Source: a virus (Duplodnaviria; Caudoviricetes). Taken from it: a stretch of DNA of 48,018 nucleotides. Where the stretch lies: positions 1 to 48,018 of the IMG/VR virus record IMGVR_UViG_3300037722_000305; one strand, 5' to 3'. Made by a program: the position numbers and the translations under genes. Numbering within the stretch: the first letter of the stretch is position 1; each line of letters begins with the position of its first letter. Below are positions 36,596-41,846 of this stretch, in pieces. The notes under the pieces are model-generated. The model saw only the letters and a program-made list of their open reading frames with translations, had not been told where the DNA came from and did no database searches.

Positions 36596-36897
36596 ATGAT
36601 TTTGATGAGCAGATTAACAATGCCTTCTACGGTGTAGGGCAAGCGATTACACCCGATGCTATCCGCTTCATGCAGACATTCAATCGCATGGCAAAAGGAA
36701 CGGTCTATACCTGTGTGACCGCATGGCAAAAAGGCGATAGCATCTACGCTTGTATCAAAAAACCACATGCTGATGGTGGTACAGAAGATGGCATACAGCG
36801 CTGCGCTGTTGATAGCGATTATGAGGCTAAGGCGCTATCCATGATTGATTATTACGACAATCCGCCAAAAACATTACGACCAGCACCGGAGAAGTGA
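36592..36897 (+). CDS. Hypothetical protein
   Basis: RBS AAGGAG with ATGA coupling. Confidence 0.5.
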   Translation: MNDFDEQINNAFYGVGQAITPDAIRFMQTFNRMAKGTVYTCVTAWQKGDSIYACIKKPHADGGTEDGIQRCAVDSDYEAKALSMIDYYDNPPKTLRPAPEK

Positions 36898-37178
36898 CCA
36901 TGAACCTGGCATCAAAAAATGATACACTAGCGCAAAATCAACAAAGTGAAGGATTGCGGATAGTGAGCAAGCAGGAAATCGAATGGATACGAACATCTGA
37001 GGCGGCTAAAATATTAGGTGTGAAAACCACGCAAGGCGCTTTACATATTCTACGAGGCGAGGGTAAGGTTAATCCAAAGTGGATTGTTCGACATTGGAAC
37101 ATTGGAACTGATGATATGCCACGATACCTAGTTGCTAAAGAGGATGTTATCGCCCTAGCCGAGCAACGCAAAAGTTAA
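36894..37178 (+). CDS. HTH_17/excisionase-like DNA-binding protein
   Basis: WIRTSEAAKILGV...RYLVAKEDV pattern. Confidence 0.6.
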   Translation: MTMNLASKNDTLAQNQQSEGLRIVSKQEIEWIRTSEAAKILGVKTTQGALHILRGEGKVNPKWIVRHWNIGTDDMPRYLVAKEDVIALAEQRKS

Positions 37179-37189
37179 ATTATTGTAAC

Positions 37190-37218
37190 TTGCGCTTGCG
37201 TAAACAATGGTGTATGAT
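37190..37218 (+). promoter_or_regulatory. Sigma70 promoter driving the tRNA-like RNA cassette
   Basis: TTGCGC-17 bp-TATGAT; predicted TSS about 37225. Confidence 0.65.
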
Positions 37219-37231
37219 AGTTGAAAGTGAA

Positions 37232-37307
37232 GGGGTGTATCTGGTATCGACACCGATTAAGACCTGAGAGGGTAGTCCGAAGCTAGGTTGCAAAGCCTAG
37301 CACTCCA
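37232..37307 (+). ncRNA. tRNA-like RNA resembling the tRNA-like domain of tmRNA (no mRNA-like domain)
   Basis: GGGGTG/CACTCC acceptor with G3:U70 and discriminator A; GG-TA-TCGAC motif; CTAGG-TTGCAAAG-CCTAG T-arm. Confidence 0.55.
37269..37307 (+). repeat. 39-bp direct repeat, copy 1
   Basis: AGGGTAGTCCGAAGCTAGGTTGCAAAGCCTAGCACTCCA; 38/39 identical to 38829-38867. Confidence 0.95.
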
Positions 37308-37337
37308 TTGGCAAATATAACAATAAATGAGGAAAAT

Positions 37338-37651: not shown

Positions 37652-38824
37652 ATGGATAAGATTAACGCGCTCACACTGGAGCAAGAGCAACAAATGGTAG
37701 CCTTCCGTGAGCAGTGGCGGGCTATTGGGATGGCAACAGGTGCGGCAAACCGCGCTATTGTTACACCAATAATTGAGAATTTCTATGCCGCTATTGGCAA
37801 AGAAAAACCTCATGTTTGGTATTGCCAATCCCCCATCCAGATTCAGCTAATATTAAATCTTCGGGATAATCTTGGGGATAATCTTCGGGATAATCTTGGG
37901 GATAATCTTCGGGATAATCTTGGGGATAATCTTGGGGCTAATCTTGGGGCTAATCTTGGGGATAATCTTCGGGATAATCTTCAGGATAATCTTCGGGATA
38001 ATCTTCGGGATAATCTTCAGGATAATCTTGGGGCTAATCTTCGGGCTAATCTTCGGGCTAATCTTGGGGCTAATCTTCGGGATAATCTTGGGGCTAATCA
38101 ATTGCGGTATTTCCCCACCTACGTATGGGGGGCACTCGATGCTTATTGGGTGGCTTATTATCTATATCCGCAAAAGTATCTCAAAGCGGATATTTACACA
38201 CCGTCAGATTTATCACAATTACGCCAATGGGGTAAATTGGCTGAGAATGCTTTCTGGGTCTATCCGTTTGAAAAGGTCTGCTTCGTATCGGATAGACCCT
38301 CAATCTTCAATATGGAAAATCAGAACGGACGTTATCAGTTGCATTCAGATAATGCCCCCGCCATCGGTTTTTCGGACGGGTACGAACATTACTACTACAA
38401 AGGGGTGCATGTGGAGGAGCAAATAATCATGCAACCCGATACTATCACCGTTGGTCAAATCCAAAACGAACGCAACGCAGAAGTACGGCGCGTGATGCTT
38501 GAGCGGTATCGCCTGAGCGAGCAGGTATCCGGCGAGGTATCCGGCGAAGCATTGTTTATCAAAGATGTCGGGATTGAGCCACAAGCCAGTGACGAGTACG
38601 GCACGGTGTACCTAAAATCATTCAGTGACGATGAAGCATTGTGCTATGTCAAAGTTACATGCCCAAGTACCGCACGTGTGTATTGGTTGCGCGTTGACCC
38701 GTCCGTCTACGACAATCAGGCGAGTATCAATCCACAGGCGGCTGTTGCGAGTACATGGCGACGGCAAGATGGTAGTTTATTTTTCGCAGACTGGCGCGAC
38801 TATGCACCAGTTGAACAATCATAG
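37652..38824 (+). CDS. DUF6745-like protein with an NL[RGQ][DA] tetrapeptide array
   Basis: W..SP, repeat block, WVYPFEKVCFVSDRP, LH....PAI.FSDG...YY.KGV.V, NAEVRRVMLE, V.V.CPST.R.YWLRV.P. Confidence 0.75.
   Translation: MDKINALTLEQEQQMVAFREQWRAIGMATGAANRAIVTPIIENFYAAIGKEKPHVWYCQSPIQIQLILNLRDNLGDNLRDNLGDNLRDNLGDNLGANLGANLGDNLRDNLQDNLRDNLRDNLQDNLGANLRANLRANLGANLRDNLGANQLRYFPTYVWGALDAYWVAYYLYPQKYLKADIYTPSDLSQLRQWGKLAENAFWVYPFEKVCFVSDRPSIFNMENQNGRYQLHSDNAPAIGFSDGYEHYYYKGVHVEEQIIMQPDTITVGQIQNERNAEVRRVMLERYRLSEQVSGEVSGEALFIKDVGIEPQASDEYGTVYLKSFSDDEALCYVKVTCPSTARVYWLRVDPSVYDNQASINPQAAVASTWRRQDGSLFFADWRDYAPVEQS
37856..38098 (+). repeat. 12-bp tandem repeat AATCTT(CG/GG/CA)GG(A/C)T, 20 units
   Basis: Counted directly; encodes NLRD, NLGD, NLGA, NLQD and NLRA. 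Confidence 0.95.
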
Positions 38825-38867
38825 GAGTAGGGTAGCCCGAAGCTAGGTTGCAAAGCCTAGCACTCCA
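38824..38867 (+). repeat. 39-bp direct repeat, copy 2 (38829-38867), with its own GGAGT acceptor strand; tRNA minihelix-like
   Basis: GGAGT(38824-28)/ACTCC(38862-66) plus GCTAGG-TTGCAAAG-CCTAGC. Confidence 0.9.
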
Positions 38868-38895
38868 ATAGCAATCGAATAGTAAGGACGTAATT

Positions 38896-39837
38896 TTGAT
38901 AGACCCGAACATGACAATTTATCCGGTAGTAGCACAAAAGCATATTGTATCAGTGTCAAGTGGAGCGCCAAGTGCGTTACTGCTGATGCTTATCAATCTT
39001 GCGGATACCTACGGCAAAAATAATGTGGTTGGTCTATTTGCTGATACGAACGCCGAGCATCCTGATAATTATCGTTTCCTGTATGACCTGCAACGCGCAG
39101 GATACGATATTGAATTTGTCACGACGGGGAAGTCACCGAACCAACTCCAACTAGAGCAAAATACTATTTTTACAAATTTTCTTGCGCCGTGTACGCGGCA
39201 ATTAAAATTAGAGCCGATACGCGAATTTGTCCAAACGATGCAACGGTGTGGCTATTTGTGTCATATGCACGTTGGGTTCACGGTGGAGGATGCAAAGCCA
39301 ACATCGGATAAACCAAACGGACGCATCACAGATACAAAAGCCTCATGGCTTTCCAATGGTGTAATCCCTCATTTTCACCTTGTGGACGAACAGTACAATC
39401 GGCAACAGGTGATGAGTGAGCTTAAGCAACGCGGCTTCATTGTGCCGATGAGTTACGCGCTTGGTTTTCCAAACGCGAACTGCCTAGCAGAAGGTGGGTG
39501 TGTGAAGGGTGGCAAAGGCTACATGCTGAAAATCCTAACGCACTTCCCCGAATATTACGCTAAACGCGAAGAAACCGAGCGGATTATCCGTATTCGCCAG
39601 TACAAAAAACAGCGCGAAAATGGTGTACGGGTAGCAGATATAAAACTGTACAGCTATCTCAAGAGCCAAGTCCACGCGGGCGGGCGCGTCACATTGAAGC
39701 AATTTCGATTAGAACACGAAGCGGCACAGCGTGATGATATGCAATTGAAATTATTTACGCTAGATGCTGACGGGGACTTATGCGGGGCGGAGTGTGGGGT
39801 ATCCAATCCGGGTATCTGGCAACAACCCGCCGCGTAA
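38896..39837 (+). CDS. PP-loop (PAPS reductase-like, adenine nucleotide alpha-hydrolase) protein
   Basis: IVSVSSGAPSA PP-loop, FADT..EHPDNYRFL, PCTRQLK, GF, YALGFPNANC..GGCVKGG, C-terminal CGAEC. Confidence 0.8.
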   Translation: MIDPNMTIYPVVAQKHIVSVSSGAPSALLLMLINLADTYGKNNVVGLFADTNAEHPDNYRFLYDLQRAGYDIEFVTTGKSPNQLQLEQNTIFTNFLAPCTRQLKLEPIREFVQTMQRCGYLCHMHVGFTVEDAKPTSDKPNGRITDTKASWLSNGVIPHFHLVDEQYNRQQVMSELKQRGFIVPMSYALGFPNANCLAEGGCVKGGKGYMLKILTHFPEYYAKREETERIIRIRQYKKQRENGVRVADIKLYSYLKSQVHAGGRVTLKQFRLEHEAAQRDDMQLKLFTLDADGDLCGAECGVSNPGIWQQPAA

Positions 39838-40797: not shown

Positions 40798-41846
40798 TGA
40801 GTGATTTTATTCCCAACACATTCCAGACACCCAACGCAATTATAGATACACTAATGTTTCTGCTCACAGATAGCGAATTTCGTGTACTTATGTACGCTGT
40901 TCGTCACATACTTGGCTGGACTAAAAAAGCCCCAACCCGTCGAGCCTGTATATCCCTATCAACATTTGAAGATGGATTTTCATATGATACTCCTGATGGA
41001 GAAATTAGTTATCCCGGTTGTGGGTTACGTGTAGCCCCTATTCGCAAAGCTTTAAAGTCACTCCAAAAATATCGCATTTTGAAAGCGATTGGCAAACCTT
41101 CACAGAAAGGGCAAAAATGGGAATTAGCCTTCATGACCGATGATGATGTAGACATTGCAGGTCTTAAATCCCGACAAAAAAATCAACGGGATAAAAATTA
41201 TAAACGGACGCAAAAAGCACGTGACGCATCTCCCAATAATCAAGAGGGGGTACTGTCCAACAGTTACACCATAGGGGGTACTGTCCAACAGTCAGGGGGG
41301 GGTACTGTCCAACAGTCAGGGGGGGGTACTGTCCAACAGTCAGGGGGGGGTACTGTCCAACAGTCAACAACGAAAGACCATAGTAAAGACCATAGTAAAG
41401 ACCAAAGAACTTTAGCGGTTGCACCGCAGACTACTGGCAATACCGAAGTAGACACTTCGGGTAAAAAGGATAAAGAACCCGACAAGCCGGACATCAAAGC
41501 ATTAGCCGATGTGATTGAAATTCATCTCGATATGCACAATGGGCGACAATGGAATATTGCCCATATGTTACAGGGAACGGCTAAGAAGGGCGAATATGCA
41601 GAATACGGGAAGCACTTTACCGATAACCCGATGAGTGGGGATGAGTTTGTTAAATTCATGGCATATTTTAATCGAGAGTGTGACGGATGCTCACTTGCAA
41701 AAGCTGAGACGATAGCTGATTGGGTGGGGAAATTCAGGGCGAACGCACAAAAGCAAGTAGATGATTTCCAGAGACGATTAGCGCATATGCCGAAACCTCT
41801 CAATTACGACAGTCTACCGAAGCGTGATGAGGCAAGACCAGCATGA
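40794..41846 (+). CDS. Phage replication initiator (lambda O-like N-terminal wHTH)
   Basis: PNTFQTPNAIID.LM..L...EFRVL.Y..R...GW...ISLS.F..G; internal iterons; followed by primase-helicase. Confidence 0.8.
   Translation: MMSDFIPNTFQTPNAIIDTLMFLLTDSEFRVLMYAVRHILGWTKKAPTRRACISLSTFEDGFSYDTPDGEISYPGCGLRVAPIRKALKSLQKYRILKAIGKPSQKGQKWELAFMTDDDVDIAGLKSRQKNQRDKNYKRTQKARDASPNNQEGVLSNSYTIGGTVQQSGGGTVQQSGGGTVQQSGGGTVQQSTTKDHSKDHSKDQRTLAVAPQTTGNTEVDTSGKKDKEPDKPDIKALADVIEIHLDMHNGRQWNIAHMLQGTAKKGEYAEYGKHFTDNPMSGDEFVKFMAYFNRECDGCSLAKAETIADWVGKFRANAQKQVDDFQRRLAHMPKPLNYDSLPKRDEARPA
41246..41403 (+). repeat. Putative origin: five iterons GGGGGTACTGTCCAACAGT plus AAAGACCATAGT repeats
   Basis: Copies at 41246, 41274, 41298, 41322 and 41346 (24-bp period for the last four), each with an ACTGT/ACAGT dyad; 12-mer repeat at 41373-41403. 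Confidence 0.85.

Follow-up and report, generated by a model that had tools for sequence, protein, structure and literature searches.

A deviant homologue of the tag-less phage tmRNAs next to a repeat-flanked DUF6745 cassette

Does a 76-nt tmRNA-like element, placed between a small gene and a DUF6745 cassette of a tailed phage, descend from tmRNA, and could it still sequester SmpB? The window, i.e. the whole stretch of DNA that was analysed, is one contig of 48,018 bp carrying tailed-phage genes (terminase, portal, scaffold, tape measure and primase-helicase), for which a sediment metagenome was the best match among the runs. A scan of 61 (52 + 9) window proteins against PHROGs gave no integrase match, no terminal repeat was found on the contig, and the contig may be incomplete. 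No host is named, because the five terminase relatives (at 35–53%) fall in unrelated phyla. A gene resembling a replication initiator contains tandem 24-nt repeats (41274-41366), the arrangement that an iteron-bearing origin would show. The initial annotation had described the element as a promoter-driven, stripped-down tRNA-like domain (TLD) of tmRNA, acting either as an alanylatable decoy or as a tag-less ribosome-rescue RNA.

Sequence and predicted fold of the element

The features of the locus are collected in Table 1. The RNA begins 53 nt after the stop of the upstream ORF. The boxes and spacer of its proposed promoter are present, but the site matches 8 of 12 consensus bases, is not among the 10 sites listed by a promoter scan, and is one of 11 matches to a looser type in the window, which makes it a weak candidate. 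An imperfect inverted repeat (37182-37209), located directly 3' of the small gene, surrounds the -35 box and could be an operator. No terminator was found on the plus strand between the RNA and position 38133.

Table 1. Coordinates of the features of the 76-nt element and of the adjacent cassette.
Feature	Position	Strand	Remarks
Upstream small ORF	36894-37178		no family match
Putative sigma-70-type promoter TTGCGC-17-TATGAT	37190..37218	+	intergenic, after ORF 36894-37178; boxes 37190-95 and 37213-18, 17 nt spacer; predicted start near 37225
Deviant homologue of TLD-only phage tmRNA, 76 nt	37232..37307	+	model R1, 32.8 bits
Acceptor 5' strand GGGGTG	37232..37237	+	pairs with CACTCC 37301-37306, 6 bp
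tmRNA D-loop motif GG-NN-UCGAC	37243..37251	+	letters GG-TA-TCGAC
Upper helix 2 (GAUU/AGUC, weak) and inner hairpin CCU-GAGA-GGG after AAGA	37255..37279	+	helix-2 base unpaired
T-arm-derived hairpin CUAGG/CCUAG, 8-nt loop UUGCAAAG	37283..37300	+	strands 37283-87/37296-300
Left repeat copy (copy 1)	37269..37314	+	core 37269-37307, 38/39 identical; 93% over 46 nt with the trailer
Small cassette gene, 103 aa	37338..37649	+	phrog_27831, E 1.6e-12
DUF6745 gene with internal 12-nt repeat array (repeat family D1)	37652..38824	+	PF20530, E 2.1e-24
Right repeat copy (copy 2) 38829-38867 plus GGAGT 38824-28	38824..38867	+	closes into 44-nt tRNA-like mini-domain

The acceptor letters are in place as annotated: G37234:U37304, third from the stem end, corresponds to G3:U70 and is followed by A37307 as the discriminator. 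In the 76-mer the predicted pairing probabilities are 0.96 for G1-C72 and 0.93 for G3-U70 (outer pairs 0.93–0.96), while the sixth pair, G6-C67, reaches 0.27 and competes with the T-stem (0.73). The GG-NN-UCGAC motif occurs once on either strand of the window, and the 28 nt between TCGAC and AAGCTAGG hold no tag reading frame, again in agreement with the first description. Probabilities are 0.18–0.20 for the upper helix 2 and 0.46–0.57 for the inner hairpin. The T-arm letters and the 8-nt loop likewise stand; however, the loop UUGCAAAG is predicted to zip up by two extra pairs with a GCAA tetraloop (0.89–0.94), which had gone unnoticed. Conversely, the hairpin GGTGT/ACACC, flagged as a competitor, is present in letters but has a probability of just 0.04.

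Two other identities, considered by eye against consensus sequences, were rejected: a hammerhead ribozyme (no stem I) and a tRNA-Leu-like molecule (no anticodon stem).

A family of tag-less phage tmRNAs and the place of the window copy

Excerpts of two sources (PMC4131195 and PMC11915505) describe, citing Mao et al. 2009, a TLD-only tmRNA of mycobacteriophage DS6A, and state that expression of the DS6A-type molecule in E. coli inhibits tmRNA, perhaps by titrating SmpB. As this class is already described, the decoy idea is not new. According to the excerpted text of PMC11915505, CDS-less tmRNAs also occur in mitochondria and plastids, with genes of about 65 bp in Mallomonadaceae plastids. Our literature search, covering main texts, recovered DS6A as the sole TLD-only phage form in print and nothing on the breadth of such a family.

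Viral contigs were searched with two patterns. The first, composed of the two ends of the element and the D-loop motif, gave 51 loci, 23 of which have a 7-bp acceptor and a 5-bp T-stem with a 7-nt loop, none of it demanded by the pattern. An inner hairpin (A-rich run, CCN-loop-NGG) is present in most of these loci and also in the window element. The second pattern, built on this hairpin with the T-arm left free, matched at least 120 viral loci (about 150 estimated); among the matches listed there are 95 distinct sequences, of which 77 pass the acceptor/T-stem filter, four resemble members apart from a slight deviation in parse or pairing, and keep UUCGA, and 14 look like chance. Pooled, the patterns yielded at least 86 distinct intact RNAs in at least 120 viral loci.

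A covariance model (R1), made from nine members chosen as aligned in register and with the window sequence excluded, scores intact members at 54.6–92.2 bits (the nine training sequences at 77.2–92.2). It finds the RNA of DS6A, a TLD-only (CDS-less) tmRNA listed as tmID 11587 on the tmRNA Website, at JN698994:28478-28557 (58.9 bits). Two intact relatives reach 72 and 63.4 bits with Rfam RF00023 (cut-off 47). In an alignment (A3), itself adapted to the model and with three rows of non-members among its sequences, 97.4% of 529 cells are paired and 18 of 22 pairs show two-sided changes (0/500 shuffles). Within these limits, it is strongly supported that the structure of this family is under strong constraint. 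G3:U70 is kept in 86/86 relatives among the matches listed, as had been anticipated, but this is largely built into the search patterns. The missing CCA, first regarded as a caveat, is indeed not encoded after A37307 (the next base is T), yet its absence is usual in the family (21/86 relatives among the matches listed encode CCA). By analogy with the DS6A type, intact members are likely to be processed like tRNA and to occupy SmpB without a tag, which would lower host trans-translation.

Several family observations deserve separate mention. An unannotated copy in Streptomyces phage LuckySocke (L136:2001-2078, OR725497:17977-18054; 65.8 bits on R1) is an intact TLD-only mini-tmRNA within the tRNA cluster of a cultured phage, with similar blastn matches in GiJojo and pSt2308; such phages would be convenient test systems. 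Even smaller TLD-only RNAs (60–67 nt), with a plain hairpin replacing the inner arm, were seen at L104:2001-2065, L108:2001-2067 and L113:917-976, the one at L108 being labelled tRNA-Arg by ARAGORN. L115/L222 carries a second GG..TCGAC motif about 30 nt upstream of the mini-tmRNA, and in L101/L191 the acceptor and T-stem are intact around a non-canonical 7-nt T-loop. With at least 86 distinct sequences, the intact family is a more useful object than an eroded copy.

R1 aligned with the window at exactly 37232-37307 over model positions 1-79 (32.8 bits, E 2.8e-6; next match 12.7), i.e. with the ends originally proposed for the 76-nt element, while an ordinary tRNA-Ala scored 29.3 bits on the same model. 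Since the search motifs derived from the window element itself, controls were run. The 22 distinct motif-matched non-members (28 non-passing first-pattern loci minus five duplicates and the near-member L129) reached at most 19.6 bits. With 28 motif positions fixed, 3/1000 shuffles aligned to a family member as well as the element did (13/1000 by mean score), and the corresponding value for a sequence-only HMM with 20 positions fixed was 27/2000. The nearest relatives, L140, L180 and L193, have GATTAA..CCTG..GGTA in common with the window element. Given the R1 match, the non-member controls and the fixed-motif shuffles, the element is a homologue of the tag-less TLD-only phage tmRNAs, more than chance would give, and its supposed descent from a tmRNA TLD is borne out. 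Neither Rfam (at E<=10) nor ARAGORN returned anything relevant on the window, so that the check first suggested with these tools came back empty, and blastn of the locus against cultured phages gave no match on the RNA.

The window copy is nonetheless the least canonical one seen, a derived homologue rather than a member in working order. It has kept G3:U70 and A73 (on a 6-bp stem), GG..UCGAC without a D-stem, the lack of a tag frame and the family inner hairpin. Its deviations are: (i) an acceptor of 6 bp at most, GGGGTG/CACTCC versus GGGGGTG/CACCTCC in the nearest relatives, one base fewer per strand (7 bp in the 86 relatives was imposed by the filter, yet 77 of the 95 sequences of a pattern not demanding it passed, among the matches listed); (ii) an 8-nt loop on the 5-bp T-stem instead of the 7-nt UUCRA loop, which 84/86 relatives among the matches listed have; (iii) a helix 2 with 1/6 basal pairs, versus 6/6 in 73/86 relatives and never fewer than three (among the matches listed), the opening C-G pair, found in 86/86 of these, being followed here by five non-pairs; and (iv) T after the discriminator, where 82/86 relatives among the matches listed have C. 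The poor pairing of helix 2 had been recognized at the outset; the acceptor one pair short had not. In comparison with the T-stem of L140 (CACGG/CCGTG), two base pairs are changed, both compensated on the other side.

Set against known systems, the RNA is closest to that of DS6A in being phage-borne, about 76–80 nt long and endowed with G3:U70, A73, a GG..UCGAC D-loop, a CCN-loop-NGG inner hairpin after an A-rich run and a T-arm, with no tag frame and no encoded CCA. However, DS6A has a 7-bp acceptor, a UUCGAUU T-loop, a paired helix 2 and 58.9 bits on R1, whereas the window copy has 6 bp, UUGCAAAG, an unpaired helix-2 base, 32.8 bits and a duplicated 3' half. With the standard one-piece tmRNA (SsrA, RF00023) it shares the acceptor identity elements and the D-loop motif, but it is a quarter of the length, lacks tag frame and pseudoknots and has no Rfam or ARAGORN match. 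The organelle CDS-less tmRNAs are likewise tRNA-like domains without a message; these are organelle genes with a resident SmpB, while the window RNA is phage-borne and deviant.

No second copy of the odd form was found among the 95 distinct matches listed for the T-arm-free pattern, among the three matches of an odd-loop pattern, or in metagenome contigs with a T-arm plus acceptor pattern, whose one match was an in-gene chance hit. A 3'-half pattern had no match in viral contigs, and a nearest-subfamily pattern gave 9 viral loci, all intact, and none in genome contigs. Because the look-alike searches were exact patterns, one of which gave at least 120 of about 150 loci, a small conserved subfamily could be missed. 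Two exact matches of the hairpin in viral contigs (L001 and L002) were rejected as copies: the same letters are part of a longer palindrome before TATAAT, without the 5' half, and are not scored by R1. These loci (L001:2501-2520 and L002:2501-2520) belong to unrelated phages sharing the 20-nt hairpin and similar preceding letters, and the palindrome takes the place of the -35 box in a TTGCAA-17-TATAAT promoter. A variant of the window element, T37276C, occurs in one contig (depth 4.6) of another sample (run X2); it weakens helix 2 further and makes copy 1 equal to copy 2 at the sole core mismatch, and could reflect exchange between the repeats or an error.

The direct repeat and the DUF6745 cassette

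The 3' 39 nt of the element are repeated 1560 bp downstream with one mismatch, in two copies only, a feature which the initial annotation did not mention. Between the copies lie two genes. The 103-aa gene has 178 relatives in viral contigs, showing that the cassette is widespread, and the fold of its product is also seen fused to DUF6745. Within the DUF6745 gene, positions 37850-38100 form about 21 tandem 12-nt units encoding a tetrapeptide repeat (NLRD/NLGD/NLGA); many cassette-bearing viral contigs end 200–900 nt past the small gene, as if assembly breaks in this array. A literature search on DUF6745 found nothing.

A two-gene block flanked by a unique 39–46 bp repeat, neither gene being a recombinase, fits insertion with long target duplication. 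The excerpted text of PMC2853133 describes this process for restriction-modification genes and gives as its criteria a block of <20 kb, no mobility gene and a unique, high-identity flanking repeat of >30 bp. The present block agrees in size, in lacking a mobility gene and in its repeat, but its cargo is a DUF6745 cassette rather than restriction-modification genes, and no empty site was found. That the duplication took in the 3' half of a tRNA-like gene is at the same time reminiscent of how integrases use tRNA genes. Both copies carry the odd loop, so the loop appears to have changed before the duplication.

Other cassettes were compared. Of 80 cassette loci, 37 are complete with flanks (34 distinct), and L068 alone has a longer repeat, of 27 nt, in the same geometry; the remaining cassettes and the controls have repeats of 12–17 nt. 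The L068 repeat (965-991 and 2549-2575) includes a ribosome-binding site and start codon. A link between RNA and cassette, as expected from the proposal to collect homologues upstream of DUF6745 cassettes, was rejected: none of the 80 cassette loci holds a family RNA, and tblastn found no cassette match in the 86 family loci, many of which are short. The 3'-end duplication is likewise absent from all 64 family loci of 1.5 kb or more. No close relative of the locus was found, including via the downstream gene, and contigs of 7 runs, of a kind that cannot span the repeat, showed no joint across the cassette. In one run, depth was 9.2–9.65 inside the cassette versus 11.1 outside, a difference too weak to count.

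Copy 2 is more than a bare repeat. Its ACTCC pairs perfectly with the GGAGT just before it, with A-U at the 3:70 position, and the resulting 44-nt fold is predicted at -20.7 kcal/mol (z -3.54, 0/200 shuffles). Five-base stretches able to pair perfectly with ACTCC are found at 32 of the 48,013 window positions. This mini-domain opens with G38824, on which the DUF6745 stop codon ends, and three of its five closing bases, GAG, could be part of what was duplicated. A single 151-nt contig of run X3 (depth 2.3) agrees with the window over 38824-38901 but has 73 other letters, including an A-rich run, ahead of 38824; these letters are absent from the window, and the contig may be chimeric or may come from a strain in which other DNA precedes copy 2.

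Possible erosion, remodelling or co-option of the RNA

We lean, with confidence little above even, towards the view that the element is an eroded SmpB decoy, weakened or dead, and now the hairpin leader of the cassette transcript. Having lost the canonical T-loop, one acceptor pair and the helix-2 base, it is probably a weak or dead decoy; since the 7-bp acceptor, the UUCRA T-loop and the paired helix-2 base are all missing, the alanylatable decoy first proposed is doubtful as a working molecule, although the decoy idea itself matches the literature on DS6A. The order of events could be as follows: the RNA would have drifted first and acquired the odd loop before the duplication; the two-gene cassette would then have inserted behind it, a long target duplication copying its 3' half; transcription from the upstream promoter would today continue through the RNA into the cassette; and the remnant would act chiefly as a stable leader hairpin on the cassette transcript. 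In that case phage mini-tmRNA genes can decay and become landing sites for passenger cassettes, a modest point, and copies of this sort escape ARAGORN as well as Rfam.

What speaks most against simple decay is that the changes are tidy and compensated: T-stem pairs are compensated, G3:U70 and A73 are kept, the D-loop motif and inner hairpin are intact, and a promoter-like site is present. This brings in the main rival to erosion, a reshaped decoy that still works, which we consider possible though doubtful. It would be cut from the transcript and bind SmpB via the intact D-loop motif, charging or a canonical T-loop not being needed, and the altered loop could stabilise the RNA or hide it from tRNA-cutting defences. 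However, contacts between the T- and D-loops are said, in the excerpted text of PMC3968760, to be required for SmpB binding; the helix-2-opening C-G, constant in the relatives, gives way here to five non-pairs; neither the T-arm-free pattern (among the matches listed) nor the odd-loop pattern supplied a second example; and T37276C, if not an error, weakens helix 2. Were the RNA still inhibitory, it would offer a natural experiment on the requirements for a decoy, and would show that SmpB can be sequestered without the T-loop, a full acceptor or helix 2.

The extra closing stem of copy 2 is unexplained by a simple scar. Alternatively, both copies could have been recruited as tRNA-like signals for processing or stability, marking boundaries in the operon and freeing or shielding the cassette mRNA. 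The same acceptor-like stem can be closed on the same stable hairpin in both copies, the matching 5-mer is found at few window positions, and both copies lie 30–43 nt before a start codon. Still, the GAG of the closing bases may stem from the duplication, the feature was noticed after the fact, and none of the 80 other cassettes has such an RNA nearby. RNase P determinants include the T-loop consensus and CCA, neither of which is present here. Overall, we judge this co-option improbable.

An elaboration on both copies can be imagined, in which RNase P cuts at the 5' end of copy 2, the resulting non-stop DUF6745 message is destroyed by trans-translation, and copy 1, a T-loop-less SmpB decoy from the same transcript, blocks trans-translation so that the protein accumulates. 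The DUF6745 gene would then be gated by the phage's own anti-tmRNA; we find such a circuit very far-fetched.

The eroded decoy is also to be preferred to the tag-less rescue RNA of the initial annotation, which would be alanylated, delivered with SmpB and EF-Tu, and accept the stalled chain untagged. Its alanine identity elements are present, and tag-less tmRNAs are known from mitochondria and plastids (excerpt of PMC11915505), but the one tested phage form inhibits tmRNA (excerpts of PMC4131195 and PMC11915505), the short acceptor and lost T-loop argue against ribosome entry, and there is no reading frame for release. With nothing in the analysis supporting it, rescue is highly unlikely. The excerpted text of PMC11662646, on AcrIIIA1, has no bearing on the element.

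Finally, the element could be an intergenic hairpin that happens to resemble a tmRNA end: its folding energy alone is not significant (z -1.48, 15/200 shuffles), it has no Rfam match, ordinary tRNA-Ala comes close at 29.3 bits and the search motifs came from the element; but such a coincidence is scarcely credible in view of a full-length R1 match above all 22 motif-matched controls, equalled by 3/1000 fixed-motif shuffles, and of an inner hairpin common to DS6A which the first search did not demand.
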